From: an uncultured Candidatus Saccharibacteria bacterium
GTDB lineage: Bacteria; Patescibacteriota; Minisyncoccia; Portnoybacterales; UBA2143
NCBI GenBank assembly: GCA_964649795.1
Contig: CAZYQY010000002.1
Location: forward strand, 1 to 61,659
Direction: 5' to 3'
Length of the DNA stretch: 61,659 nt
In this document: one piece after another, positions 3,932 through 48,568 of the stretch
Numbering within the stretch: position 1 is the first letter of the stretch
Layout of the letters: each line of letters starts with the position of its first letter
The notes under the pieces: model-generated
Told to the model about the DNA's origin: nothing
The model's input: only the letters and a program-made list of their open reading frames with translations
Databases searched by the model: none
Program-made: the position numbers and the translations under genes

Positions 3932-4804
3932 TTATTTCTCAATCTTTATCTGTAGTAAATCCCCATTAGTTAAAACTTCTATATCACCATTTTTATCTGT
4001 TCTATAAACTAAAATATCTTTTAATCTTTCTAAAATATCTTTATGTGGATGATTGTATCTATTATCAAGTCCAACTGAAATAATCGCTATTTGTGGATTA
4101 ACTGCTTTAAAAAAATTGTAACTAGTGGATGTCTTGCTGCCATGGTGCGGTACTTTCAAAATATCTGATGCTAATCCGCAAGCCAATGGATTATTAATCA
4201 AATATTGTTCAACCTCTTTTTCAATATCGCCAGTTAAAAGAAATTCTATTTGTCCGTAAATTAATTTGCCAACTACTGAAACATTATTTGCTTTTTTAGC
4301 AAATGACTCAACTAAGGTTTGTTCTGGCCAAAGAATATTCATAATTATTTCCTTTTCTAAAATTATTTTTTGCCCGATTTGAGCAAGGGTTAAGGAAATA
4401 TTTTTTTCTTCAATTAAATCATGCCATCTTTTATAAACAGCTGTATCTTTTTCAAGGCCACTGGATAAAATGTGTCCGACCTGATAATGCTTAAGAACCT
4501 CAACCAAGCCAGTAATATGGTCAGCATCAGGATGAGTTAAAACGACTAAATCAATAGTTCTGTCATAAAAAGGCATTGTTTTGCCTAGTTTTTCCAAAAC
4601 TTTTTTATCAGGTCCGCCGTCAATCAAAATCTGTTTGCCTTGCGGTGTTTCAATAAAGATAGAATCTCCTTGCCCTATGTTAAAAAAATGAACTTCTAAA
4701 ATATTGTCAGGAGATTGCTTAAAAATAGATGACCAAATCCAAATAGTTCCTATTAAAAGGATACTTAATATTAAATAATTAATTCTGCGCTTTTTAAAAA
4801 ACAT
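3932..4804 (-). CDS. ComEC C-terminal metallo-beta-lactamase domain protein, encoded as a separate ORF
   Basis: N-terminal TM helix, HPDADH zinc motif, and PHHGS near the C-terminus. Overlaps the upstream comEC channel ORF by 11 nt. Confidence 0.8.
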   Translation of the reverse strand: MFFKKRRINYLILSILLIGTIWIWSSIFKQSPDNILEVHFFNIGQGDSIFIETPQGKQILIDGGPDKKVLEKLGKTMPFYDRTIDLVVLTHPDADHITGLVEVLKHYQVGHILSSGLEKDTAVYKRWHDLIEEKNISLTLAQIGQKIILEKEIIMNILWPEQTLVESFAKKANNVSVVGKLIYGQIEFLLTGDIEKEVEQYLINNPLACGLASDILKVPHHGSKTSTSYNFFKAVNPQIAIISVGLDNRYNHPHKDILERLKDILVYRTDKNGDIEVLTNGDLLQIKIEK

Positions 4805-6137
4805 TTTTTTTATTCTGATTCCAGATAAAAAATATTAAGACAAAATAATAGCCTAACAAAATTATCCAGGAAATATTTTCAAATTCATAAGCAGCAAAAG
4901 GAAAAGACGATAAATAGTCAATTACTTTAATTAAATAAGTTAATAATAGCCAAACTGGCAAGGCAATAATTTTAGCCAATCCTATTGATATAAGTCCAAT
5001 AAAACTCAAAATAATGCCGAAAATCATTATTATAGACAACAGCGGAACTATTAGCAGATTAGCTAAAGGAGAAATTAAAGAAAGCCGTCCAAAATGAAAA
5101 ATTAAAATTGGCAATGTACCTAATTGAGCTGCCAAAGTCATGGTCAAAATATCTTTTAAACGCCACGGATTAGGCCATTTGGATGTTTTATTATCTAAAA
5201 TGGGCTTAAGATAGACAATGCTTAAGCAGGCCATAAATGAAAGCTGAAACCCAACATCGGACTTTAATAATAATGGATTAAATACTAGCATTATTACGGC
5301 TGCAAAAACTATTGCTCTGTCTGCGCTACGCAACCGGCCTATTTTTTGAGCTAATAAAAGCAAACTAGCCATTATGCCTGCTCTTACTGCTGAAGCCGGA
5401 GCGCCAATCATTATAATATAGGCAACCATCAGAAGGACAACGAAATAAAAGGCTTGTCCCCGCCAAAGCCCAATGCCTAAAGCTAAAAAAAGCAAAATCT
5501 GAGTCATAATAATCATATGCATTCCGGAGATTGCTACAATATGGCGAGTACCGCTAATATTTAATTTCTCTTTCAATTCTTCTGAAAGACCATAGCGATC
5601 ACCTAAAAAAATTGCCTTTAGAATACTGCTTTGCGGAGGCAAAAGTGTTTGTTCGATAACTTTTCTTAATCTATCTTTGAAATTGAAAATCCTCTGGTAG
5701 AACCAATTAGCTTTATTACTTCCTAATAATTTAATATATGGAGAATAGATTACTGAATAAACTTTATCTTTGGCTAAATAAGCACGGTAATCAAAATCCT
5801 CAAATTGAGCTGGTTCTTTTAATTGGCCAATGATTTCCAGCTGATCTCCATAATGATATTCGGGATATAATCCTTTGGTAATTAAAATCTTGCCTGGAAT
5901 TTTTTCGGTATTGACTTGAAATTTCTGTTGATTAATTCTTTGTTCTGGTTCTTCAATAATAACTCCTTGAAAACTAATTTCTTGATCATAATATTGGCTG
6001 AATTTATCATTCTGTGGGACTTTAATAAAAGAATAAATAAAAACTCCGCCAATAAACAAAAGGCAGAGACAAAGAAAGATTTTGGATTTAGTCATATCAA
6101 TATTCAATCCATTTTCTTGCTTTAACTCCTTTTTCAA
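4794..6137 (-). CDS. comEC: ComEC/Rec2 DNA internalisation channel (OB-fold plus competence membrane domain)
   Basis: Polytopic membrane protein. The ISGMHM and GAPASAVRAG motifs are typical of the ComEC competence domain. Confidence 0.8.
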   Translation of the reverse strand: MKKELKQENGLNIDMTKSKIFLCLCLLFIGGVFIYSFIKVPQNDKFSQYYDQEISFQGVIIEEPEQRINQQKFQVNTEKIPGKILITKGLYPEYHYGDQLEIIGQLKEPAQFEDFDYRAYLAKDKVYSVIYSPYIKLLGSNKANWFYQRIFNFKDRLRKVIEQTLLPPQSSILKAIFLGDRYGLSEELKEKLNISGTRHIVAISGMHMIIMTQILLFLALGIGLWRGQAFYFVVLLMVAYIIMIGAPASAVRAGIMASLLLLAQKIGRLRSADRAIVFAAVIMLVFNPLLLKSDVGFQLSFMACLSIVYLKPILDNKTSKWPNPWRLKDILTMTLAAQLGTLPILIFHFGRLSLISPLANLLIVPLLSIIMIFGIILSFIGLISIGLAKIIALPVWLLLTYLIKVIDYLSSFPFAAYEFENISWIILLGYYFVLIFFIWNQNKKNVF

Positions 6138-6603
6138 AATAATGTTTAATTTGTTTCATCTCGGTAACCAAATCAGCAGATTGGATAATTTTTTTTGAAG
6201 CATTGCGGCCAGTTAAAACAAGTTCTATCGCTGATGGAGTTTTTTTTATTAAATCCAAAATATCTTTTGTTTTTATTAATCCGAAACTATTTACTACATT
6301 AATCTCATCTAAAATAATTAAATTATATAATTTATTTTGAATAGCTTTTTGAACAAAATTAAAACCTTGATTAGCAAGGTCAAAATCTTTTTTATCCAAC
6401 TTATTTTTATCTAAAAATCCTTTTTTACCAAAAATTTTTACATCGAAATTTTTTAATTTTCTAATTGTCTTTATTTCTGAACTCTGACCATCTTTTAAAA
6501 ATTGTACAAGTAAAACTTTTTTCCCAGCGCCATTCGCTCGCAAACCCAATCCCAAAGCAGCAGTTGTTTTGCCCTTGCCATCGCCAATATAAACCTGAAT
6601 CAT
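6097..6603 (-). CDS. cobO: Cob(I)yrinic acid a,c-diamide / cob(I)alamin adenosyltransferase (CobA/CobO/BtuR family)
   Basis: IQVYIGDGKGKTTAALGLGLRANGAGKKVLLVQFLK P-loop signature of the family. Lies 1 nt downstream of nrdJ. Confidence 0.75.
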   Translation of the reverse strand: MIQVYIGDGKGKTTAALGLGLRANGAGKKVLLVQFLKDGQSSEIKTIRKLKNFDVKIFGKKGFLDKNKLDKKDFDLANQGFNFVQKAIQNKLYNLIILDEINVVNSFGLIKTKDILDLIKKTPSAIELVLTGRNASKKIIQSADLVTEMKQIKHYFEKGVKARKWIEY

Positions 6604-6604
6604 A

Positions 6605-8800
6605 TTATTTAGTAGAATCTCCTAAAATAGAAGTAGGAGGAGCAATTTCTTCCTTTTTAGAGTCACAGTTGGGACAATCTGAGTCTAATCCTTCTTTCCC
6701 CTTAGTAGTTAATACTTCTTTTTCCCTTGACCCACTGCGATAAACAGTAAATGCTTTGCATCCTGACTGCCATGCCAATTGTATTACTTTTTCAACGTCA
6801 AACCTGGTAGTTTCATTAGGAAGATTAATAGTTTTAGAGATGCTATTATCTAAATGCTTTTGAAAAGCAACTTCCATCTTTATATGATCCTTTGGATCAA
6901 TATCCATTGAACCGACAAAAACTTTTCTAATATTTTTAGGAATCTCTTTTATATTCTGAACAGTTCCTTCTTTATAAATCCTATCAATTATTTTAGGAGA
7001 GTATAGTCCTTTTTCTCTAAGTTTTTTTTCTAAATAATGATTGACATAATAAAATTCCTCTTCTCCCATTATTTGTTGTTTGGTATAAGCTAAAGCAAAA
7101 TAAGGCTCTACGCCAGAAGAAACTTCTGGAATCATAGAGATAGTCCCCGTAGGAGCAATACAAGTAAGAGCGGCATTACGCATCTTAATTTTCTTCTTTT
7201 TCCAAATACTCAATTCGTAGTTAGGGAATACTTTCTTTTCATTGGCTAATTTTTGAGAAGTTGCATGAGCAGTTTGATTTATAAATTTCATTATTTTCTC
7301 TGCTGTTTCAAAGCCTTGTTCTGAATTATAAGGAATTTCTAATTGGAAAAGGAAATCAGCAAAACCCATTATTCCTATGCCAATTCTACGATTTTTCTTG
7401 AACATGCTATTTGTTCTGTCTATGGAGAATTCTGTAAGATCTATAACATTATCTAGCATTCGGGTAGCCAATTCAACCGCTTCTTTTAATCTTCCCCATT
7501 TAATTTTTTTATTTTCAACAAATTTGTCTAGATTAACAGAACCTAAATTGCAGACATCTCCGTCATGTAAAAATTGCTCTCCACATGGATTAGACGCCTC
7601 AATTTTTCCTAGTCCGGGCAAAGGATTAGTTTTATTAACCTTATCAATGAATATTATTCCAGGCTCTCCGTTAATCCAAGCATTATTGGCAATTTCAGCC
7701 ATAACTTCTCCAGGAGTAATTTTAATATCTTGAATTTGAGAAATTTTTTCATATCTATCTCTAATTATCCTTCTTGGCAGCATTTTTTTACCGTTAAATT
7801 GACACATCCACGGTTCTTCAGAATTATTCTTTACTTTTCTCATAAAATCATCCGTTAAAGAAATGGAGATATTAAAATTAGAGAGTTCGCCTTCTCTGTC
7901 TTTAGCATGAATAAAATCCAAAATATCTGGGTGGTCTATTCTCATTATTGCCATGTTTGCTCCGTGTCTGCCTTGCTGTTTAATAACGCCAAAAGCTTTA
8001 TCATATACATTCAAAAAAGAAATCGGACCAGAGGCAACGCCTTGAGTTCTCTTTGTTAATGAACCAGCTGGCCTAAGAAGATGGAAAGGGAATCCTATTC
8101 CAGAACCGCTTTGCTGCAATAGCGTAGCATCTCGAAGCGTATTAAAAATATCATTCATGCTGTCTCCAATATGCAGAACTACACAATTAGAGATCACTGG
8201 CATAGATGTGCCAGTATTAGTTAAGGTTCGTCCAGCCGGCAAAAATTCAAGATTAGACATTAATTGATAAAATTCATCTTGCCATTTTTTTATCTCTTTA
8301 GCAGATTTTCCGTATTTCTTTTCTACTTCAGCTATTGCTTTAGCAATTCTTTTGAACATTTCTTCTGGATTCTCAATAACTTTTCTTGTTTTGGGGTCTT
8401 TTCCTAAATACCTGCCAGCTAAAATTTTTAAAGAATTTAAACTTAAATGAAGTTGCGTACTCCTGCCATTTAGAATTCTTTCTCTCTCTTCCCTAATCCT
8501 TTGATGCTCTTTGCGGTAAATAATATATGATTTTGCTGAATCAATATAGTTTTCTTTCATTAAAGCAATTTCTACAATATCTTGAATATTTTCTACATCT
8601 GGGATATTTTTCTTATTTTTAAAAACTTTATTTAATCCATTAACCACTTGATCAGATATATTTTTAGCAACTTTCGAATTAAATTCTCCAGTAGCTTGAC
8701 CAGCGGCTAAGATAGCTTTGGTTATTCTGTTTTGTTCGAAACTAACAATACGACCATCTCTTTTTTTAATTTTATTAAACTTCATTTTTGTATTAGACAT
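6605..8800 (-). CDS. nrdJ: Adenosylcobalamin-dependent (class II) ribonucleotide reductase with N-terminal ATP-cone
   Basis: ATP-cone (KIKKRDGRIVSFEQNRI), SNPCGEQFL...CNLGSVNL active-site region, and a C-terminal CPNC redox pair. Confidence 0.8.
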   Translation of the reverse strand: MSNTKMKFNKIKKRDGRIVSFEQNRITKAILAAGQATGEFNSKVAKNISDQVVNGLNKVFKNKKNIPDVENIQDIVEIALMKENYIDSAKSYIIYRKEHQRIREERERILNGRSTQLHLSLNSLKILAGRYLGKDPKTRKVIENPEEMFKRIAKAIAEVEKKYGKSAKEIKKWQDEFYQLMSNLEFLPAGRTLTNTGTSMPVISNCVVLHIGDSMNDIFNTLRDATLLQQSGSGIGFPFHLLRPAGSLTKRTQGVASGPISFLNVYDKAFGVIKQQGRHGANMAIMRIDHPDILDFIHAKDREGELSNFNISISLTDDFMRKVKNNSEEPWMCQFNGKKMLPRRIIRDRYEKISQIQDIKITPGEVMAEIANNAWINGEPGIIFIDKVNKTNPLPGLGKIEASNPCGEQFLHDGDVCNLGSVNLDKFVENKKIKWGRLKEAVELATRMLDNVIDLTEFSIDRTNSMFKKNRRIGIGIMGFADFLFQLEIPYNSEQGFETAEKIMKFINQTAHATSQKLANEKKVFPNYELSIWKKKKIKMRNAALTCIAPTGTISMIPEVSSGVEPYFALAYTKQQIMGEEEFYYVNHYLEKKLREKGLYSPKIIDRIYKEGTVQNIKEIPKNIRKVFVGSMDIDPKDHIKMEVAFQKHLDNSISKTINLPNETTRFDVEKVIQLAWQSGCKAFTVYRSGSREKEVLTTKGKEGLDSDCPNCDSKKEEIAPPTSILGDSTK

Positions 8801-8851
8801 AAAAAAAATCCTTTCTTTATTTAGAATTCAAAATGTATTTCTATTTTACTC

Positions 8852-8884
8852 CATAAATAAAAGGCAGTCAAATGACTGCCTTTT
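8852..8884 (-). terminator. Rho-independent terminator downstream of ftsZ
   Basis: ggcagt-caaatg-actgcc hairpin, followed on the minus strand by ttttattt. Confidence 0.7.
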
Positions 8885-8905
8885 ATAAACAAAGAGTAAA
8901 TAAAT

Positions 8906-10018
8906 TTACTTCATTTTTCTGCGAATAAAAGCGGGGATATCCCACTCATCTTCCGGTTCTTCAATAGAAACTGGCCTAGGGCTAGGAACTCTTTTATTTT
9001 TTTCTTCTTGATTAATTGGCGAAATGTCTTGAATCCTTGTTTCTCCTGATTTCTTTAATAATCCTTCGTCAAAACCAGTTGCCACAACAGTGATTTTAAT
9101 TTCGCCTTTCTTTAACTTATCATCCATAACAGCGCCGAAAATCACTTTAGCTTCCGGATCAATTGATTCAGTTATAATTTTAGCCGCTTCATTAATTTCA
9201 GTCATGGCTAAATCAGAGCCACCGCTAACATTAAATAGAACTCCCTTAGCGCCATCAATTGAAATTTCCAAGAGAGGAGAGTTAATTGCCGCTTTAGCTG
9301 CTTCAACAGCCCTTTCATCACCACTAGACCATCCAATACCCATTAAAGCTGATCCAGCATCCTGCATAATTGCTTTAACATCAGCAAAATCAACGTTAAC
9401 AATTCCAGGAGTTACAACTAAATCAGAAATGCCTTGAACTGCTTGACGGAGAACATCATCAACAACTGAAAAAGCATTTAATAAAGACGTCTTATTATCA
9501 ATAACTGAAAGAAGTTTATCATTAGGAATTGTAATTAAAGTATCAACTCTATCTTTAATATGCATTAAACCTTCTTCAGCGATACGAGCCCTTTGTTGGC
9601 CTTCAAAAGAAAATGGCTTGGTTACAACTGCGACTGTCAAAGCTCCTGAATCTTTTGCTGCTTCAGCAATAATTGGACCAGCACCCGTTCCAGTTCCCCC
9701 GCCCAGTCCATAAGTAACAAAAACCATATCTGATCCTTTAACTACTTCATGGATTTCATCACGATTTTCTTCAGCTGCTTGGCGTCCTATTTCTGGATTC
9801 ATCCCAGATCCAAGACCCTTGGATAAATTTTTACCAATATGAACTTTTTCTGTCGCAGCAACATGATGCAAATCTTGCGCATCAGTATTAATAGCGACAA
9901 AATCTACTCCATGAATTTTAGAAGCCACCATTCTAGAGATGGCATTTCCTCCGGCTCCTCCTACGCCAATTACTTTAATTTTTGCAAAAGTTTCCACCTC
10001 CGGTTTTATCTGAGCCAT
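8906..10018 (-). CDS. ftsZ: Cell division protein FtsZ
   Basis: GGGTGTG tubulin signature and NTDAQ motif. Confidence 0.97.
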   Translation of the reverse strand: MAQIKPEVETFAKIKVIGVGGAGGNAISRMVASKIHGVDFVAINTDAQDLHHVAATEKVHIGKNLSKGLGSGMNPEIGRQAAEENRDEIHEVVKGSDMVFVTYGLGGGTGTGAGPIIAEAAKDSGALTVAVVTKPFSFEGQQRARIAEEGLMHIKDRVDTLITIPNDKLLSVIDNKTSLLNAFSVVDDVLRQAVQGISDLVVTPGIVNVDFADVKAIMQDAGSALMGIGWSSGDERAVEAAKAAINSPLLEISIDGAKGVLFNVSGGSDLAMTEINEAAKIITESIDPEAKVIFGAVMDDKLKKGEIKITVVATGFDEGLLKKSGETRIQDISPINQEEKNKRVPSPRPVSIEEPEDEWDIPAFIRRKMK

Positions 10019-10137
10019 ATTATTAAAATGACTGCTTTATTATCATAAGCAAAGTTTTAGAAACTGTACTTAAAATAACATTAACATCTTTATTAATAAC
10101 TAACATAACTTATAAAATAATGCAAGTGTTTTTCTTC

Positions 10138-11382
10138 TTAGGGCAAAAAATTCTGAAACCATCCTTTAATTGTCCTGATTGTTGAACCAATTGGAATTCC
10201 AGGAAGAGGAATTCCTCTCCTACTAGATCTGGCGCGTTTATCCATATTCCAAAGTATTAATCCAATAGCCGTAGCAAATGATGGATCGTCAATTTCATCT
10301 ATAGCGCCTTCTGTTTCCAAAGGAAATCCTATTTGTACTGGCAATTTCAATTCTCTCTTAGCCAAATCAACTAATCCAGGGATTTTAGCTCCTCCTCCCA
10401 AAAGGACTGCTCCTGCCGGCAATAATCCCTGACGGTCAACTTTTTTTAACTCATTATTGACTAATTCTAAAATTTCACATAATCGAGCTTCAATCATGCT
10501 AACCATTTCTATCCGAGGTATAATACCTCTTTCCTCCGGTTCTAGTTTAGACAAATCAACAATATCTTTTTTGCTAATTTCAGATGCTAAAGCTGAACCA
10601 TATTCTAATTTAACTTTTTCCGCCAAATCAATATTGCTCCTTATGCCAATAGCAATATCATTAGTAATATGCGAAGAACCAATCGGCAAAACATGACTAT
10701 GGACGATCTCTCCCTCTTCAAAAACTGTTAATCCAACTGTGCCACCTCCTAGATCTAAAGACAAAACGCCTAATTCCTTTTGTCTTTTGCTAAGAGCTGC
10801 TCGGCTGGCTGCTAATGGCGCTAAAATCATTTCCTCTATATCCAGACCGGCTTCTTCAATGCACTTCCTTAAATTTTTAATAAAAGGGACAGCTCCTTCA
10901 ATAATTAAAGCATCTACTTCCAGACGAACTCCATTCATGCCAACTGGCTCTTTAATCCCTTCTTGATTGTCAATAGAAAAATTTCTAGGAATAGTGTGCA
11001 GAATTTCTCTATTTTGAGGCACAGAGATAGCTGAGGCAGCTTTGATTGCTCTTTCGACATCCTCTTTTGAAACTTCACCATCTGCTCTGGAAACAGCTAC
11101 TACGCCTTTGCTAATTTTAGGAATAATGTGATTACCGCTTAAACTAACTAAAACACGTTCAATAGGCAAGCCACTACTTCTTTCAGCTTCCTGAATAGAT
11201 TGACTGATATTTTTAACTGTTTCTTCAATATCAACAACAGCTCCCCTGCGAAGTCCAAAAGAAGGCACTTTGCTAATGCCGATAATTTGAGGCTTTGTAT
11301 GATCAGCATTTATCTTAGCAACCACCGTTCGGATATAACAAGTACCGACATCTAAACCAACAATAATATTTTCTTTAGACAT
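10138..11382 (-). CDS. ftsA: Cell division protein FtsA
   Basis: Actin-like ATPase (GLDVGT, DLGGGT) located immediately upstream of ftsZ. Confidence 0.95.
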   Translation of the reverse strand: MSKENIIVGLDVGTCYIRTVVAKINADHTKPQIIGISKVPSFGLRRGAVVDIEETVKNISQSIQEAERSSGLPIERVLVSLSGNHIIPKISKGVVAVSRADGEVSKEDVERAIKAASAISVPQNREILHTIPRNFSIDNQEGIKEPVGMNGVRLEVDALIIEGAVPFIKNLRKCIEEAGLDIEEMILAPLAASRAALSKRQKELGVLSLDLGGGTVGLTVFEEGEIVHSHVLPIGSSHITNDIAIGIRSNIDLAEKVKLEYGSALASEISKKDIVDLSKLEPEERGIIPRIEMVSMIEARLCEILELVNNELKKVDRQGLLPAGAVLLGGGAKIPGLVDLAKRELKLPVQIGFPLETEGAIDEIDDPSFATAIGLILWNMDKRARSSRRGIPLPGIPIGSTIRTIKGWFQNFLP

Positions 11383-42208: not shown

Positions 42209-42745
42209 TTATTTTAACAAATAAAGCGCTTCTTGTAAAAAATATTTTGAATTCAATTTTTCTCTTAAAAACGCTTCAACAAAATCAAGAGGATTTTTTT
42301 GTTTTCCATACCCTAAAAATTCTAACAATTTATTTTCAAAATCACTAATAATGATTTTAACATCCTGATTTGGCTGATTGAGTTTTTGTAAGCTAGATAA
42401 AAATATTTGCCAAATATTTTCATCTTTTTCTGGACCAGGAATCAATTTATCAATTAATTCTGACAGATAATAAGCAGATGATAAAGAGATTAAATTCTTA
42501 TGAATAAAAGAGAATCTTTTGAATGTTTCTGCTCCTGTGATAATATCAAATCTTTTGGCTGGAGCAATCATCAGATGTGTGTATAAAAAAAGCTCGAGAT
42601 GACCTTTAAGCTTAGCTTGGTTTTTTCTAATTGATTTGCCTCTAACTAAAATTTTGCCAAAGTCCTTGGTATAAACAGTTAAAAGTCTGTCAAACTCACC
42701 TAAATTAGTTCTTTTAATAATAATCCCTTGCGTTTTATAGAGCAT
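42209..42745 (-). CDS. recO: DNA repair protein RecO (short form)
   Basis: N-terminal OB fold (TQGIIIKRTNLGEFDRLLTVYT) and size typical of RecO. Confidence 0.75.
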   Translation of the reverse strand: MLYKTQGIIIKRTNLGEFDRLLTVYTKDFGKILVRGKSIRKNQAKLKGHLELFLYTHLMIAPAKRFDIITGAETFKRFSFIHKNLISLSSAYYLSELIDKLIPGPEKDENIWQIFLSSLQKLNQPNQDVKIIISDFENKLLEFLGYGKQKNPLDFVEAFLREKLNSKYFLQEALYLLK

Positions 42746-42753
42746 ATAAATTA

Positions 42754-45700
42754 TTATTTCTTAATCCCCAGCCAGATTTTCTGATTATCTAAAACAATCT
42801 CTTTTTCTGCTAAAAAGTTCTTTGTTTTTTTTAATTGAATCTCTATTTTCTTAGCAGAAATTTCTTTCTTAATTTCTGTTTCATTTTTCTGAACTAACTT
42901 ATTCAAGAAATCATTTCCTGAATAATACAAATGAATTTCTTGACCAGGTTCTAATCTGCCGTCCTTGCGCATCCCCTGAATAAAACGAACAAGATCTCTA
43001 ATCATCCCTTCGGTCTTTAATTCATCAGTAATTTTAATATCTAATTTAATATTTTTTCCAAATACAATTTCTTTTACATTCACTTCTTCCTTTATTAATC
43101 CTGATAATTCCTTATCAGAAACTATATGCTTATTATTAATTGTTAAACATGCTAATGGTTGGCGCACTTTTAAGCCAGCCTTAGCTCTTTGAGCTAAAGA
43201 TTCAGCAGTTATCTGCCTTGCTTGATCCATTTTTTCTTCTAAATTTTTATTAATTAATTTTTCTTTTGGTTTTGGATAATCATCTAAATGAACTGATTCT
43301 TTATCGCCTAACGATTGATATATTTTTTCAGTAAGAAATGGCAAAAAAGGAGCTGCTATTTTAGATAAATTAATTAAAACATAAGACAATACTCTTTCGG
43401 CTTGTTGTTTCTCTGTTATATTCTCAGGTTTTTGAAAGCGTTTGCGTGAACGTCTAATATACCAATTAGAAAGATCATCTATAAATTTATCAATTAAACG
43501 AGCAGCTTTAGTTAATTCATATTCATCCATCAATCTTATTATTTCCTTATTAAAAGAATTTTGTCTGGATATAATCCATTTATCTAATATGTTTTTGGAA
43601 ATTATTGATTTAGGCGCTTTATTTTTTTTATCTGCATAAGTATTATAAAACACGAATGAATTCCAAAGAGTCATAATTGTTCTACGCATTGTCTCTCCAA
43701 TTCTTTTTTCAGAGAAAATATAATCTTCGCCCATGGGTGTCCCTGTAAGAAGAAAATATCTTAATGAATCAGCGCCATATTTATCAAAAATTATTTCCGG
43801 AGTTGCGTAATTTTTCAAACGCTTAGATAATTTCTTATTATCTTCGCTTAAAATTAACCCGTTAACAATAACATTTTTAAAAGACGAGGTTTTTTTGCCA
43901 AGCCCTTTGTTCTTTAAAGTTAAAGCAGTTGCTAAAACATGCAAAGTGTAAAACCAGCCTCTGGTTTGATCCAACCCCTCAGCAATGAAATCAGCTGGGA
44001 AAGTCCTTTCTACTAATTTTTTGTTTTCAAAGGGATAATGCCATTGTCCATAAGGCATTGAACCAGATTCAAACCAGCAATCAAAAACTTCTAATGTTCT
44101 TTTCATTTTTCCTCCACAAGAACAATCTAAAACAATTTTATCAATAAATGGACGATGGAGATTTAAATTGCCTTCATTATCAAAAGGTAAATTTTTAAAT
44201 TTAAGAGAATGAAATTGCCCAGTTTTAATGCGATCAGGTACATTTTTTATTATCTCTTCGTTTTCAAGTCCTTGAACAGCTCCTTGTAAAATCCAAAGCG
44301 GAGCACCATGGCTGATAATAAGAATATTTTTGTTAGAATATTTCTTATTCATTGTCAAGAAAGAATTCATCATTCTTTTTTTAACCTGATTAAGACTTTC
44401 GCCTTTAGATGGTATTTTGGTAAATCTCAATAAATCATTATTATTAAAATAAGCTAAATATTCTTTTATAAGCTTGCCCTTAAAAATACCTGGATTTAGA
44501 TCTCTGAGTTTTTTGTCATAAATAATCTTAATATTTAATAACTTACTAATCATAGAAGCAGTTTGGCTCGCTCTAAAATAATCTGAAGAAAAAATTAAAT
44601 CAATCTTAGCTTTTTTTAATTCTGGAATTAGCTTATTTATTCGTTTTTCGCCTTCTTTTGTTAAGGGCATCTTTTTATTTTCTTCATCAGTATAAATCTT
44701 ATTGATTATATTATTCTCTGTATGTCCATGGCGAAGAATAAAATAATTATTTTTTTTGGTTTTTCCAGATAATCCTTCGAGTCCGCCAATAGCTTTTGTC
44801 TTGCCACATTTCTCGCATCGCCAAATTGGAATTGGCGCACCCCAGTAACGATTTCTTGAAAAAGACCAGTCGCGCGCGCCTTCTAACCATTTGCCAAAAC
44901 GGCCTTCCTTCAAATGCCCTGGCACCCACCTAATTTTTTTATTATTCTCAACTAATGCTTTTTTAAACTTAGTAACTGAAATATACCAGCTGTTTAAAGG
45001 ATAGTACAAAAGAGGACTTTCGCAGCGCCAACAAAAAGGATAAGCATGAACTATTTTTTCTTCTTTGAATAATAAATCGCGTTTCTTTAAATCTGCCTTG
45101 ATATCAGCATCTGCTTTTTTAACAAATTTGCCTTCACCTGGGATTTTTAATCCTTTGATTATCTTGCCTTCTTCGTCAACCGTAATTACTGCAGGTAAAT
45201 TTTCTTTTTTACCTAATTCCATGTCTTCTTCTCCAAAAGCAGGAGCAATATGAACTAAACCAGTTCCGTCGTCAACTGAAACAAAATCAGCTGGAACAAC
45301 TCTATAACCAGAACCTTCTAGTTTCATCTTGTATAGTGGATTGTATTCTTTGCCAACTAAATCTTTTCCTAAAAATTTATCAACAATCTCATAATTATTG
45401 CTATTGCCTAAAACATCTAATCTGTCCTTAACTAAAATTAAATATTCATTATTTATTTTTACTTTAACGTATTTGAAATCAGGACCAACAGCAATGCCAG
45501 TATTAGCGCCTAATGTCCAAGGAGTAGTTGTCCAGACAAATAGATAAGTATCTTTTTCGTTTTTAAGCTTAAATTTAATGTAAACTGACTCATCTTCTAC
45601 ATTTTTATAAGCGCCTGGCTGATTAAGTTCAAAATTAGATAAAGGAGTACCACAGCGTGGACAATATGGAGTAACTCGATAATCCTGATAAACTAAACCT

Positions 45701-46185
45701 TGATCCCATAATTGCTTTAATACCCACCAAACAGATTCAATATATGTATTATCCATTGTTGCATAAGAATTAGAATAATCAGACCATCTGCCAACACGAT
45801 TTAATGTTTTATACCAATCATTAATACACAGAAAAACAGACTTTTTACATTCTTTATTAAATTTGCCAATGCCATATTCTTCAATATCTTTTTTGCTTTT
45901 CAACCCTATTTTCTTTTCAACCATATTTTCTACGGGTAAACCATGACAATCCCAGCCAACTCTCCATAATATATTATGACCTTTCATAGACCAATATCGT
46001 AAAACCGTATCTTTAATCGTGCTGGCTAAAATGTGACCGTAATGAGGTAACCCAGAGGCAAAAGGCGGCCCATCATAAAAACTAAAAAAGGGCTTCTTTT
46101 CTCGAAGCTTAATTGATTTGGCAAAAATATTTTCCTTATGCCAAAATTTTAATATTTTCTTTTCTATTTCAGGAATTTGATTCAT
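42754..46185 (-). CDS. ileS: Isoleucyl-tRNA synthetase with an inserted histidine-phosphatase-like domain
   Basis: PHYGHIL (HIGH) and KLSKRLKN (KMSKS) motifs and a CP1 editing domain. There is an extra block of about 200 aa with RHGHTENN...FRASQTA...ISHGAP between WRCEKCG and LHRPFIDK. Confidence 0.93.
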   Translation of the reverse strand: MNQIPEIEKKILKFWHKENIFAKSIKLREKKPFFSFYDGPPFASGLPHYGHILASTIKDTVLRYWSMKGHNILWRVGWDCHGLPVENMVEKKIGLKSKKDIEEYGIGKFNKECKKSVFLCINDWYKTLNRVGRWSDYSNSYATMDNTYIESVWWVLKQLWDQGLVYQDYRVTPYCPRCGTPLSNFELNQPGAYKNVEDESVYIKFKLKNEKDTYLFVWTTTPWTLGANTGIAVGPDFKYVKVKINNEYLILVKDRLDVLGNSNNYEIVDKFLGKDLVGKEYNPLYKMKLEGSGYRVVPADFVSVDDGTGLVHIAPAFGEEDMELGKKENLPAVITVDEEGKIIKGLKIPGEGKFVKKADADIKADLKKRDLLFKEEKIVHAYPFCWRCESPLLYYPLNSWYISVTKFKKALVENNKKIRWVPGHLKEGRFGKWLEGARDWSFSRNRYWGAPIPIWRCEKCGKTKAIGGLEGLSGKTKKNNYFILRHGHTENNIINKIYTDEENKKMPLTKEGEKRINKLIPELKKAKIDLIFSSDYFRASQTASMISKLLNIKIIYDKKLRDLNPGIFKGKLIKEYLAYFNNNDLLRFTKIPSKGESLNQVKKRMMNSFLTMNKKYSNKNILIISHGAPLWILQGAVQGLENEEIIKNVPDRIKTGQFHSLKFKNLPFDNEGNLNLHRPFIDKIVLDCSCGGKMKRTLEVFDCWFESGSMPYGQWHYPFENKKLVERTFPADFIAEGLDQTRGWFYTLHVLATALTLKNKGLGKKTSSFKNVIVNGLILSEDNKKLSKRLKNYATPEIIFDKYGADSLRYFLLTGTPMGEDYIFSEKRIGETMRRTIMTLWNSFVFYNTYADKKNKAPKSIISKNILDKWIISRQNSFNKEIIRLMDEYELTKAARLIDKFIDDLSNWYIRRSRKRFQKPENITEKQQAERVLSYVLINLSKIAAPFLPFLTEKIYQSLGDKESVHLDDYPKPKEKLINKNLEEKMDQARQITAESLAQRAKAGLKVRQPLACLTINNKHIVSDKELSGLIKEEVNVKEIVFGKNIKLDIKITDELKTEGMIRDLVRFIQGMRKDGRLEPGQEIHLYYSGNDFLNKLVQKNETEIKKEISAKKIEIQLKKTKNFLAEKEIVLDNQKIWLGIKK

Positions 46186-46197
46186 ATTATTTTTTAA

Positions 46198-47736
46198 CTA
46201 CATCTTTTCTGGGGCTGAAATGCCCATTAGCTCCAGAGTATTTTTAAGAACTATTCTTGTTGCCTGAATTAAACTGATACGCGCTTGAGTTAATTTTTTA
46301 TCTTTTTCGTCAATCACGCGACACTGTTCATAAAACTGATGAAAACTATTAGCCAGTTCCATGGCATAATAAGGCAATCTTTGGACTTGATAATCTTTGG
46401 CTGTGTCTTCAATAACCTCTGGAAATTTAATTAATTTACGAACAAGATTTAATTCTGGCTTTGTCATTCTGAGGCCAAAAGCCGAAGAATCTAGATCCTT
46501 CGCTTCGCTCAGGATGACGTCTTTCGCTTTTCTTAAAATACTGCAGATTCTTGCGTGAGCGTATTGAACATAATAAACTGGATTTTTTGCTGATTGTTCT
46601 TGAGCTAATTTCAAATCAAAATTCAAATGGGTATCAGCTGATTTTTGTAAAAAGAAAAAACGAACAGCATCAGCACCAACTTTGTCTAATAACTCATCCA
46701 TTTCCACATAAAGCCCTGCTCTTTTTGACATTTTTTGCTTTTCGCCTTTATCTAAAATTGTCACAAACTGTAAAAGAATAATTTCTAATTTGTCTTTATA
46801 ACCAATTGCTTCTACCCCGGCCAGAAGCCCTGGCACATCTCCATGATGATCAGCGCCCCAAATATTAATTACTTTATCAAATTTCTTTTCCTTAAACTTA
46901 TACTCATGCAAAGCAATATCGCCAGCTAAATATGTTTTATTTCCGTCTTTTTTAATAAGAACTCTATCTCTTTTATCTCCAAATTTAGTTGATTTAAACC
47001 ATTGAGCTCCATCTCCCTGTTTAATTAAACCCTTTTCATCTAAAATTTTCAAGACTTTATCAACTATGCCTGATTTATGCAAATCTGATTCAAAAATCCA
47101 TTCGTCGTATTTAATTCCCAATTTGTCAGTCGTTTTCTGAATTAAATCTTTAATAATATGCTTAGCCAAAATTTGACCGACTTGATAAGGATCTTTCCCG
47201 TCTATTTTTTCTCTAATTCTATCAATATAATTGCTTTTGTATTTTCCTTTGCCTAAATCCAAAATTTGCTGGCCAGCATCATTAATATAATAGGCCTTTG
47301 CAGTTTTAAAGCCCGCTTTATTTAAAACATTAGTTAAAACATCTCCAAAAGGCCCGCCACGAGCATTAGCCACGGTTAAAGGCCCGGTTGGATTGGCTGA
47401 AATAAATTCAACCTGAATTTTTTTGTTTTGGCCAATATCTAATTGCCCGTAATTGTCTCCTTGTTTAATAATCTCATCTAATTCTTCCTCAAGCGCTTTT
47501 TCAGACAAAAAAAAGTTAATAAAACCCGGTCCAGCTTTTTCAATTTTTTTAAATAAAGGATTGTCTTTTAACTTGATAATAATCTTTTCTGGGTCAGTTT
47601 TCGTCTGCAAAACGATATTAGTTGAATAATCGCCAAATTCCGAATTAGCCGGATGATCTAAATGAATTTCTTTTTTAACAACATCTTTAATTAATTTTTC
47701 TATTTCTCTTCTAATCATGTATTCATCATAGCCCAT
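46198..47736 (-). CDS. argS: Arginyl-tRNA synthetase
   Basis: SANPTGPL, ADHHGD and QKMSKRAG motifs, and a C-terminal DALR domain (YVQYAHARICSILRKA). Confidence 0.95.
   Translation of the reverse strand: MGYDEYMIRREIEKLIKDVVKKEIHLDHPANSEFGDYSTNIVLQTKTDPEKIIIKLKDNPLFKKIEKAGPGFINFFLSEKALEEELDEIIKQGDNYGQLDIGQNKKIQVEFISANPTGPLTVANARGGPFGDVLTNVLNKAGFKTAKAYYINDAGQQILDLGKGKYKSNYIDRIREKIDGKDPYQVGQILAKHIIKDLIQKTTDKLGIKYDEWIFESDLHKSGIVDKVLKILDEKGLIKQGDGAQWFKSTKFGDKRDRVLIKKDGNKTYLAGDIALHEYKFKEKKFDKVINIWGADHHGDVPGLLAGVEAIGYKDKLEIILLQFVTILDKGEKQKMSKRAGLYVEMDELLDKVGADAVRFFFLQKSADTHLNFDLKLAQEQSAKNPVYYVQYAHARICSILRKAKDVILSEAKDLDSSAFGLRMTKPELNLVRKLIKFPEVIEDTAKDYQVQRLPYYAMELANSFHQFYEQCRVIDEKDKKLTQARISLIQATRIVLKNTLELMGISAPEKM
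46463..46518. repeat. 56-nt palindromic repeat element lying in frame inside argS
   Basis: gtcattctgag...ctcaggatgac outer arms match at 10 of 11 positions, and cgaagaatc / gatccttcg inner arms at 8 of 9. Translated within ArgRS it gives VILSEAKDLDSSAFGLRMT. Confidence 0.6.
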
Positions 47737-47783: not shown

Positions 47784-48248
47784 ATGCCTACATTAACTAC
47801 TAATCCCAGAGCTAAATTTGATTATTCTATTTTAGAAACCTTTGAAGCGGGTATGGTTTTGTCTGGCCAGGAAGTTAAGTCAACTAAAAACAATAAAATG
47901 AGCTTAAAGGGTTCTTATATAACGATTAAAAATGAGGAGGTGTGGTTAATTAATGCATTTGTACCTCCTTATCAGACCAAAAATACGCCTGAGGATTATA
48001 AACCTGACAAATCTAGAAAACTGCTTTTGCATAAAAAAGAAATCAATAGATTAATCGGTAAAACCAAACAAAAAGGCTTGACTTTAGTGCCTTTGCGCGT
48101 TTATACTAAACACAACCGTATAAAATTAGAGTTTGGCTTAGGCCAAGGTAAAAAGAAAATAGACAAACGAGAAAAAATTAAAAAAAGAGAAGTTAAGCGC
48201 AGCATTGACAGAGCACTACGAGACAAAGGGGATGATAGGCATCGATAA
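47784..48248 (+). CDS. smpB: SsrA-binding protein SmpB
   Basis: NPRAKFDY...LSGQEVKS...SLKGSY signature with a basic C-terminal tail. Confidence 0.93.
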   Translation: MPTLTTNPRAKFDYSILETFEAGMVLSGQEVKSTKNNKMSLKGSYITIKNEEVWLINAFVPPYQTKNTPEDYKPDKSRKLLLHKKEINRLIGKTKQKGLTLVPLRVYTKHNRIKLEFGLGQGKKKIDKREKIKKREVKRSIDRALRDKGDDRHR

Positions 48249-48568
48249 GAGTTCTTTTCTTAATAAGCAAGTCGAGCTTAAAAACTCGTTAAACTTTTAA
48301 CCCTAATAAGTGCTAACAAAAATTTAGCCTTTGCTGTTGCTTAAGCGCATCAGCCATCCAAACTTTTGACTCCTGATAAAAAGCTTTGGGTGTTATCTTA
48401 TCAGGATAGACATTTAGATTGTTTCGACTAATTGTTAAATCTTAGAAGCAGGAATTAAAAAAATTTGCTTGGTTTTTAGTTTTTAATTCTCATTACAAAT
48501 CAAGCTAAACTTGTAGAATTATTAAGAAATGCCTTTTACACGCGGGTTCGATTCCCGCCGTCTCCACC
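48228..48568 (+). ncRNA. ssrA: tmRNA (SsrA)
   Basis: 5' GGGGATG pairs with 3' CGTCTCC, giving a G3:U pair. There is a T-arm-like GGGTTCGATTCCCGCC. The tag reading frame at 48312-48344 (gct aac aaa aat tta gcc ttt gct gtt gct taa) encodes ANKNLAFAVA. Confidence 0.85.

Follow-up and report, generated by a model that had tools for sequence, protein, structure and literature searches.

Few enzymes are as well studied as the aminoacyl-tRNA synthetases (aaRS), and each of their accessory domains, which serve in editing, tRNA binding or signalling, has revealed new biology. Isoleucyl-tRNA synthetase (IleRS) of bacterial type 2 is eukaryote-like and mupirocin-resistant. Extra domains in aaRS are thus known; what is new in the IleRS described here is an accessory enzyme, an apparently catalytically intact phosphohydrolase, nested in the catalytic core. 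The gene in question is ileS on a 61,659-nucleotide (nt) stretch of DNA from an uncultured Candidatus Saccharibacteria bacterium (assembly GCA_964649795.1, contig CAZYQY010000002.1, positions 1 to 61,659 of the forward strand), which is referred to below, at its whole length, as the window. A first-pass annotation of the window had proposed that this gene carries a complete, in-frame histidine phosphatase nested in an intact IleRS, and this was borne out by profile matches, mapping of the insertion, an AlphaFold model and the fold match of the domain.

The synthetase and its nested phosphatase

One ileS only is seen in the 61 kb of the window. Its features are given below in the order of the protein, CP1 to CP3 being the connective peptides of the synthetase and 1ILE the structure of the T. 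thermophilus IleRS.

42754..46185, minus strand: ileS, type-2 IleRS with nested phosphatase, a single uninterrupted open reading frame (ORF) of 1143 amino acids (aa)
44755..46185, minus strand: N-terminal part of the IleRS, aa 1-477, which aligns to 1ILE residues 10-481
46033-46044, minus strand: HIGH motif, present as HYGH, aa 48-51 (from the translation)
45517-45534, minus strand: CP1 editing motif WTTTPW, aa 218-223 (from the translation)
44839-44877, minus strand: CP2-CP3 linker ARDWSFSRNRYWG, aa 437-449 (from the translation)
44806..44817, minus strand: CxxC half of the CP3 zinc knuckle, CEKC, aa 457-460 (from the translation)
44164..44754, minus strand: insert, aa 478-674, consisting of the histidine-phosphatase domain and a return linker (from alignment with 59 insert-less orthologues)
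44251..44742, minus strand: PF00300 (His_Phos_1) core, aa 482-645 (Pfam)
44725-44733, minus strand: R485 and H486 of the RHG motif (from the translation)
44572-44574, minus strand: catalytic residue R538
44500-44502, minus strand: catalytic residue D562
44398-44400, minus strand: catalytic residue E596
44308-44310, minus strand: catalytic residue H626 (from the translation)
44164..44193, minus strand: return linker NLPFDNEGNL, aa 665-674, consensus LP[YF]DxxGxL, found only in nested forms
44116..44124, minus strand: CxC half of the CP3 zinc knuckle, CSC, aa 688-690 (from the translation)
42754..44163, minus strand: C-terminal part of the IleRS, aa 675-1143, which aligns to 1ILE residues 489-820
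43819-43833, minus strand: KMSKS motif, present as KLSKR, aa 785-789 (from the translation)

The NCBIfam profile for ileS, TIGR00392, scored 888.8 bits against a cutoff of 621.4, with its match broken in two by the insert. In Pfam, tRNA-synt_1 likewise matched in two pieces with PF00300 between them, and PF08264 (Anticodon_1) and PF19302 (DUF5915) were also found. The N-terminal part of the IleRS contains the first Rossmann half, the CP1 editing domain, CP2, the CP2-CP3 linker and the first half of CP3, and the C-terminal part contains the remainder of CP3, the second Rossmann half (DCWFESG), KMSKS, the anticodon-binding domain and the C-terminal DUF5915 domain. Columns H48, G50, W218, T219-T221, N228, D321, K785, S787 and K788 are invariant in 118 homologues, as are the DxWFESG and GxDQTRGWF motifs, and the isolated editing-domain structure 1WK8 matches the window IleRS with an E-value of 1.7e-40. 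The motifs initially quoted for the two enzymes (HYGH, WTTTPW, CEKC, RHG, H626, CSC and KLSKR) all translate at the expected coordinates, and the statement that HIGH, KMSKS and the editing domain are kept in a continuous frame was confirmed by the translation and the invariant columns. The AlphaFold2 model of the whole protein has a mean predicted local distance difference test score (pLDDT) of 91.4 and a predicted template-modelling score (pTM) of 0.85, with the blocks of the insert mostly above 90, and is confident over both insert junctions. A Foldseek search with this model returned P. megaterium IleRS2 (8C8V, TMt 0.85) as the best match, and 1ILE with a TMt of 0.92. Judged by its motifs and domains, the IleRS is predicted to retain its synthetic, editing and anticodon-binding features, and both enzymes of the 1143-aa protein look functional.

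The position of the insert was determined using a comparison set of 121 IleRS, made up of the window protein (WIN) and its 120 best relatives from a 5.8-billion-protein database. Between WIN residues 455 and 700 the segment lengths fall into two classes, of approximately 245-258 residues in the 62 sequences that have the insert and approximately 49-79 residues in the 59 that lack it. The insert-less consensus runs '...CxKCxxKKC[VI]GS[VL]KELGxxxK' and then directly 'DLHRPxIDxxxxKCSCGG...', and window aa 478-674 lie between these two halves. Similarly, 1ILE aligns to residues 4-477 and 675-1004 of the query, with just 1ILE residues 481-489 in between. The roughly 200 extra residues first reported at a usually short linker therefore correspond to an insert of approximately 197 aa as against a loop of approximately 7 residues in 1ILE, with ends a few bases off the 44161-44763 first given. 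Among the knuckle cysteines, C457, C688 and C690 are invariant and C460 is at least 90% conserved (118 IleRS); since these four conserved cysteines flank the insert on both sides, the phosphatase is placed at the tip of the CP3 zinc knuckle. In yeast IleRS, CP3 comprises residues 459-526, and the CP2-CP3 linker, 453-ARDWNVSRNRYWG-465, lines the reveromycin/tRNA-CCA pocket (PMC7955072). The insertion is thus mid-CP3 in the yeast naming, approximately 30 residues past the equivalent linker of the window protein, ARDWSFSRNRYWG. The columns of the return linker are gaps in 87-98% of stand-alone homologues, and the nested forms conserve P667 (87%) and G672 (90%).

The GC content of the insert is 0.25-0.29 compared to 0.30-0.39 for its flanks, with no further compositional break. 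A foreign origin was considered on the basis of composition and rejected, as the slight AT-richness of the insert fits weaker constraint instead. An intein or mobile insertion was also rejected: aa 478-674 gave PF00300-type matches only in Pfam and NCBIfam, with no splicing, homing-endonuclease or transposase signature. Such an origin is also unneeded, because homologous-recombination patches with breakpoints in conserved IleRS motifs (see below) explain the presence and absence of the domain.

It had been expected that PF00300 would be found nested in the IleRS profile near residues 475-675, and the match obtained spans aa 482-645, with an E-value of 7.1e-28 and 98 bits against a cutoff of 21.7, covering profile positions 2-166 of 194. 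Modelled alone with AlphaFold2, the domain has a pLDDT of 92.1. The structures found with it by Foldseek were 4IJ5 (PspA), 9MMH (riboflavin-pathway HFP), 1H2E (PhoE), 6NRU (CobC) and 4PZ9 (GpgP), with TM values of 0.75-0.79; the fold matches to 4IJ5, 1H2E, 6NRU and 4PZ9 had E-values of approximately 1e-11 to 1e-13, and the ranking of relatives by sequence profile agreed with the structural ranking. Curated subfamilies were tried and rejected. The cofactor-dependent phosphoglycerate mutase (dPGM) profiles scored 68.9 against 225 (NF038349, dPGM_arch), 58.6 against 261 (GpmB, NF002901) and 29.9 against 320 (PRK01112), while CobC (TIGR03162) scored 65.2 against 162.9, PspA (NF045917) 59 against 350, and SixA (TIGR00249) 27.3 against 74.5. 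The initial description of the domain as PGAM-like is therefore correct at the level of the superfamily but did not hold for dPGM, CobC, PspA or SixA, and because all of these cutoffs were missed we refer to a histidine phosphatase and not to a phosphoglycerate mutase. The insert is apparently a catalytically competent histidine phosphatase of superfamily branch 1, of the compact PhoE/PspA/CobC-like type. PADLOC gave zero profile matches for the insert and two stand-alone homologues, a negative on which a defence-system component was rejected.

Residues R485, H486, R538 and H626 are 100% conserved in 61 nested and 120 stand-alone domains, E596 and R604 in all or nearly all of them, and position 562 is E or D in every one. 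The insert evolves faster than the IleRS core (64% versus 76% identity between WIN and P0122; P numbers denote proteins and L numbers loci), with a ratio of nonsynonymous to synonymous divergence (dN/dS) of 0.1-0.29 where dS is unsaturated, and the phosphatase domain is under purifying selection. A non-catalytic structural or RNA-binding appendage, in which the fold would serve as a scaffold comparable to the leucine-specific domain of LeuRS, is difficult to reconcile with catalytic residues that are invariant in 181 domains while the remainder of the domain outpaces the IleRS core. It is true that aaRS commonly gain non-catalytic insertions, and that a paralogue with a degenerate site (RHG changed to RPG or RAG; L019-B and P0315) keeps the domain. 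Degenerate sites are found only in this paralogue, however, whose IleRS active site is degenerate too, and we regard a scaffold as highly improbable.

The paralogue is encoded at L019, where a nested ileS (4522..8064) is followed by a second ileS-like gene (8083..11112, plus strand). The product of the second gene, L019-B, is 1009 aa in length and 33-36% identical as an IleRS paralogue, and P0315 and P0391 are of the same type. In L019-B the CP1 editing domain is deleted, HIGH is replaced by PNINH and DCWFESGSMP by DPCFSLSLFP, and KMSKS is lost, while the nested phosphatase is kept with RPG in place of RHG (RAG in P0315). This type appears to be a double pseudo-enzyme, and its presence in at least two protein clusters suggests a non-catalytic IleRS-like protein, perhaps regulatory or tRNA-binding. 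A supposed class of 915-1030-aa IleRS with a nested phosphatase but no editing domain was rejected, as its members are mostly 5'-truncated gene calls; only the pseudo-enzyme type of L019-B and P0315 is real.

Occurrence, locus states and exchange

Approximately half of the closest IleRS in the 5.8-billion-protein database carry PF00300; among the source names are Parcubacteria, Nealsonbacteria, Jorgensenbacteria, Pacebacteria and Paceibacterota. In GTDB species genomes, a pattern scan based on the phosphatase profile gave more than 431 relatives, and the best 80 species loci were examined. In 62 of these the phosphatase is nested in ileS, in one more it is also nested but truncated where the contig stops, and in 12 there is a separate phosphatase gene directly upstream of an insert-less ileS. 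Locus L009 is apparently nested, yet has a gap of approximately 190 nt before the domain, L019 is nested with a second ileS-like gene behind it, L022 has an insertion that separates the phosphatase gene from ileS, L067 stops at a contig edge, and L082 is the sole case among the 80 with no ileS within 6 kb. At least 75 of the 80 best loci tie the phosphatase family to ileS. When 1.84 billion cluster representatives were searched exhaustively with HMMER, 332 proteins were returned at E <= 1e-30. The insert that the first-pass annotation had suggested looking for in IleRS of the candidate phyla radiation (CPR) is indeed there, in 62 of the 121 closest IleRS as well as in 62 of the 80 best GTDB loci, and nesting is common to hundreds of Parcubacteria/Paceibacteria species.

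The same architecture was found in dozens of independent assemblies (NCBI, JGI, ENA and Logan), including the complete Nealsonbacteria genome CP179887.1. Misassembly is excluded because so many independent assemblies, one of them a complete genome, share the nesting, and the original view of the gene as a domain insertion and not a fusion artefact stands. With a continuous frame, a conserved linker specific to nested forms and an AlphaFold2 model that is confident at the junctions, the chance that we are dealing with an assembly chimera or an annotation artefact is negligible.

Literature searches found no description of an IleRS with a histidine phosphatase or PGM domain. The earlier remark that no IleRS with a nested phosphatase was known thus agrees with the literature searched but not with the public databases, where the architecture is already present, poorly named, and widespread in Parcubacteria/Paceibacteria. 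The usual names there are 'class I tRNA ligase family protein' or 'isoleucyl-tRNA synthetase', and at NCBI several nested IleRS bear only the former. At JGI the stand-alone phosphatases P0012, P0024 and P0113, each approximately 190 aa, are called 'isoleucyl-tRNA synthetase', a name probably transferred from fused proteins. Both misnamings are annotation side-effects of the nested architecture.

The genes around ileS in the window are as follows.

46198..47736, minus strand: argS, encoding arginyl-tRNA synthetase (ArgRS), upstream neighbour of ileS, from which the stand-alone phosphatase gene separates it in other lineages (ORF; synteny in L001, L002, L005, L007, L088, L089 and L091)
42209..42745, minus strand: recO-like gene, downstream neighbour of ileS (ORF; RecO_N/RecO_C matches in syntenic loci)
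47784..48248, plus strand: smpB, divergent to the argS-ileS-recO operon
48228..48568, plus strand: tmRNA gene with the tag ANKNLAFAVA, overlapping the end of smpB by approximately 20 nt

The gene order, smpB on the plus strand and argS, ileS, recO and a gene for a 623-aa protein on the minus strand, is conserved in related loci. In the window argS, ileS and recO (42209..47736, minus strand) are spaced by gaps of 12 nt and 8 nt, and a search of Rfam returned neither a T-box nor any other type of leader RNA upstream of ileS. It thus appears that the aaRS genes are transcribed together and lack the kind of riboswitch control that is common in Firmicutes. The trans-translation pair of smpB and tmRNA (47784..48568) divergently adjoins this operon.

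This one syntenic locus is found in three states, in which the phosphatase is nested in ileS, encoded by a stand-alone gene upstream, or not present at the locus. In L001 a 186-aa phosphatase, P0002, which is 49% identical to the insert, is encoded between argS and an insert-less ileS of 962 aa, and its gene overlaps the ileS start by 4 nt. Apart from its nested forms, the subfamily is almost confined to such a gene immediately upstream of an insert-less ileS; over 13 loci the gap between the gene for the stand-alone phosphatase (approximately 190 aa) and ileS ranges from -11 to +32 nt, with ATGA overlaps. The closest relative of the window protein, P0128, is 90% identical over the IleRS core but is without the insert and without a phosphatase gene (L002-L004), with argS directly abutting ileS, and the same absence of both was found for P0138, P0209 and P0156. 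In a tree of the domain, nested and stand-alone phosphatases are intermixed. Since domain fusion and a conserved, often overlapping adjacency both tie the two together, this phosphatase subfamily is linked to IleRS, and since close relatives are without it at the locus, it is dispensable there. A separate observation was made at L022 (6555..7522), where a stand-alone phosphatase gene is followed by the first approximately 17 codons of ileS (FPKIEKKILKFWQENKI), an ORF-bearing insertion of approximately 960 nt, and a restart of ileS; this looks like a gene inserted in the 5' end of ileS with a target duplication.

Comparison of the nested ileS of L005 (P0124) with the insert-less ileS of L007 (P0138) showed 96-100% DNA identity in 90-nt intervals, except that the intervals adjoining a 594-nt indel drop to 70% and 64%. 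At base resolution the identity is complete as far as '...TGTCAAAAATGCGG' (CQKCG) and resumes at 'GAGGTTTTTGATTGTTGG' (EVFDCW), and the divergent patch between these points consists of 48 nt, the 594-nt indel and 72 nt, with the 48-nt and 72-nt flanks approximately 35-45% divergent. A simple in-frame deletion was rejected as the origin of insert-less alleles, since divergent flanks of this kind cannot come from deletion. The knuckle segment, with or without the domain, was replaced as a sharply bounded patch via the flanking conserved motifs. The window and L002 show the same pattern against a background identity of approximately 90%, with 66-69% beside the indel. When all sequences are considered, the patch flanks cluster by insert state and not by core phylogeny, and at core distances below 0.15 flank identity is 53% in mixed-state pairs as against 86-90% in same-state pairs. 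The module is thus exchanged by homologous recombination between nested and insert-less alleles, and the sharply bounded patches show how an essential gene can gain or lose a whole domain and stay intact.

A second type of mosaic was found in the ileS genes of L051 and L069, which share 85-100% aa identity over aa approximately 280-700 (WIN numbering) but only 50-70% elsewhere, with a dS of 0.33 for the insert compared to 1.17 for the core. This indicates recent intragenic recombination between otherwise diverged species, and in such lineages ileS therefore seems to be a recombination hotspot. In the core tree the insert is present on all deep branches. No ancestral state was derived from this, because hits were ranked by their score to an insert-bearing query, which favours distant sequences that bear the insert.

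The number of phosphatase copies ranges from 1 to 4, and both tandem copies and fusions to other enzymes are confined to rare relatives. Two tandem nested phosphatases were found in the full-length IleRS P0278, P0339 and P0377, and P0288 is a stand-alone tandem pair. The cluster of P0339 comprises 3 members, located on up to 6 contigs. The valyl-tRNA synthetase (ValRS) P0241 carries a single phosphatase behind its editing domain and a tandem of three directly after '...DWCISRQIWWGHRIPVWY', a site homologous to that of the CP3 insertion in IleRS. ArgRS P0248 has a C-terminal phosphatase and is encoded at L091 (6001..8070) in the usual synteny of smpB, argS and recO without ileS, which must therefore be elsewhere in that genome. 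TsaC P0302 also has a C-terminal phosphatase, and matches TIGR00057 with 146.8 bits against a cutoff of 123.2. The nested, coupled stand-alone, absent and multiplied states of the phosphatase are a natural experiment for testing the function of the module. One further protein, P0388 (1066 aa), begins with an IleRS N-terminal part, has a match to IS200-type Y1 transposases at aa 340-461 in the place of the editing domain, and ends, after the phosphatase, in a C-terminal GNAT acetyltransferase. P0388 may represent either a chimera or an IleRS-like protein that has been heavily remodelled. At L082 (5986..6955) the phosphatase is followed 8 nt on by a MazG-like nucleoside triphosphate pyrophosphohydrolase, while an M23 peptidase and a class-IV (branched-chain-type) aminotransferase lie ahead of it.

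Such arrangements bear on whether the domain has anything to do with aminoacylation. It could be an unrelated housekeeping phosphatase (for phosphoserine, PGM-like, or for nucleotides) that is merely co-expressed with ileS, its expression being secured first by its place in the operon and later by fusion. Its closest characterised relatives, PspA, PhoE, CobC and the riboflavin-pathway HFP, are metabolic, IleRS works without it, and it is also seen as an ArgRS fusion at L091, where ileS is missing, and at one site, L082, that is remote from any aaRS. Placing the domain in a surface loop of an essential enzyme's catalytic core, at a single conserved site and in hundreds of species, would however be a costly route to co-expression. 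The tie of at least 75 of 80 family loci to ileS, an independent case of nesting in ValRS at the homologous CP3 site, and scores below all curated cutoffs of the known metabolic subfamilies also argue against a housekeeping enzyme, which we consider quite unlikely.

Possible function of the phosphatase

We favour, with moderate confidence, an accessory and dispensable small-molecule phosphohydrolase module that is tethered to adenylate-forming tRNA enzymes and was recruited by the IleRS of Parcubacteria/Paceibacteria. The phosphatase would be a third active site beside the adenylation site, to go by its inferred placement, with the nested form acting in cis and the separately encoded form probably in complex with IleRS. 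Its substrate would be a small phosphorylated compound that is shared by those enzymes of the tRNA pathway that convert ATP to acyl-AMP and pyrophosphate (PPi). The simplest candidate substrates are the by-products PPi or AMP, the removal of which would pull adenylate formation forward, but that the substrate is one of these two we regard as doubtful. Small-molecule turnover is favoured over a structural role or a single macromolecular site because the nearest relatives are small-molecule phosphatases, because the 2-4 copies present in some lineages suggest catalytic dosage, and because the partners IleRS, ValRS, ArgRS and TsaC share adenylate chemistry: what is common to them is ATP-dependent acyl-adenylate formation with release of PPi, within the tRNA pathway.

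Several points weigh against this explanation. Branch-1 histidine phosphatases are classically phosphomonoesterases, and PPi hydrolysis is to our knowledge not an established activity of the branch. The ValRS and TsaC fusions are singletons on contigs of 3.7-3.9 kb, and the ArgRS fusion may simply reflect read-through into the gene next to it. The loss of the domain in close relatives shows that IleRS does not need it, and its apparently ancestral position in the tree is biased toward insert-bearing sequences. No pyrophosphatase motif was found in the window, although 61 kb is uninformative on the pyrophosphatase content of the genome.

It is possible, though we lean against it, that the domain is a true third aaRS catalytic site, a portable, recombination-swapped module that ultra-small bacteria insert into, or encode beside, adenylate-forming tRNA enzymes (IleRS and, in rare cases, ValRS, ArgRS and TsaC) and that would destroy a phosphorylated by-product, inhibitor or lesion at the active site. 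Examples would be the local removal of PPi or AMP, or the reversal of a phosphorylation-based attack on the tRNA or the enzyme. If true, the accessory activities of aaRS would gain a new class, and a conserved feature of translation in Parcubacteria would be accounted for. A substrate such as PPi, AMP or a toxin-made lesion would point to a constraint on translation that is specific to these minimal, symbiotic cells.

The place of the insertion raises another possibility, namely that the domain is a tRNA phosphatase that clears a 3'-terminal phosphate, cyclic phosphate or pyrophosphate from tRNA-Ile on the acceptor-end side of the enzyme and so restores its chargeability, the lesions coming for example from RNase damage or from toxSAS-type pyrophosphorylation of the CCA end. 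The domain is inserted in CP3 immediately behind the CP2-CP3 linker, the segment lining the CCA pocket in yeast IleRS; IleRS, ValRS and ArgRS all bind tRNA acceptor ends, and patchy gain and loss by recombination is typical of conflict-type selection. However, the yeast IleRS-tRNA paper names CP3 once, in a domain list, with no tRNA contact described. TsaC does not handle the acceptor end, and tandem arrays of 2-4 copies are hard to square with a single macromolecular site. The close relatives of the domain are all small-molecule enzymes, and we know of no branch-1 histidine phosphatase that acts on RNA ends. Given in addition the absence of a PADLOC defence match, we find a tRNA phosphatase unlikely.

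A related proposal is a protein phosphatase that undoes an inhibitory phosphorylation of the synthetase, for example at the serine of the KMSKS loop (KLSKR here, S787). Toxin kinases of the HipA/HipT type target the KMSKS-loop serine in GltX and TrpS, and the IleRS and ArgRS found here carry K[LM]SKR loops. SixA, PGAM5 and Sts-1 are histidine phosphatases that act on proteins, and the accessory, recombining distribution of the domain would fit an arms race. The match to SixA is weak (2.8e-6) and, as given above, far below its cutoff, while TsaC is without a KMSKS loop and the tandem multiplication is left unexplained. No kinase that targets IleRS is known to us, the gene neighbourhoods examined share no conserved defence or toxin gene, and PADLOC was negative. 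This form of repair is, in our opinion, very improbable, and turnover of a small molecule is still the explanation that we prefer.

Comparison with known systems

The window protein resembles the type-2 IleRS of P. megaterium (IleRS2, 8C8V) and T. thermophilus (1ILE) in its fold and in its domain order of Rossmann, CP1, CP2, CP3 knuckle, KMSKS, anticodon-binding and C-terminal domains. Whereas those enzymes have a loop of approximately 7 residues at the tip of the CP3 knuckle, the window protein has an enzyme domain of approximately 197 aa. This domain shares with the compact branch-1 phosphatases (4IJ5, 1H2E PhoE/YhfR, 6NRU, 4PZ9 and 9MMH) its fold and the catalytic Arg-His, Arg, acidic residue and His, but it is only approximately 20% identical to them and below the subfamily cutoffs. 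The compact branch-1 phosphatases are also free-standing and metabolic, while the subfamily found in the window is nested in or coupled to IleRS.

Fusions that join similar components have been described. In the Rv2228c-type RNase H/CobC-like acid phosphatase (NF005567, 3.1e-16) a branch-1 phosphatase is likewise fused to a nucleic-acid enzyme, but there the fusion is a terminal one with RNase H, whereas here the domain is nested in an aaRS, and the score is 59.7 against a cutoff of 326. The IleRS with an N-acetyltransferase domain (NF040702) is a precedent for an extra catalytic domain, and in P0388 a GNAT domain accompanies the phosphatase behind an N-terminal IleRS part. With NF040702 the window protein obtains 266 against a cutoff of 1999; it has no GNAT domain, and its extra domain is internal and not terminal.

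The CP1 post-transfer editing domain of IleRS, ValRS and LeuRS is a known case of a second hydrolase that is carried in cis as a connective-peptide insertion in the Rossmann fold. CP1 hydrolyses aminoacyl esters, is universal and is needed for fidelity, while the phosphatase is in CP3, lineage-restricted and dispensable. Some editing domains have trans-acting stand-alone homologues, which parallels the nested and stand-alone states of the phosphatase.

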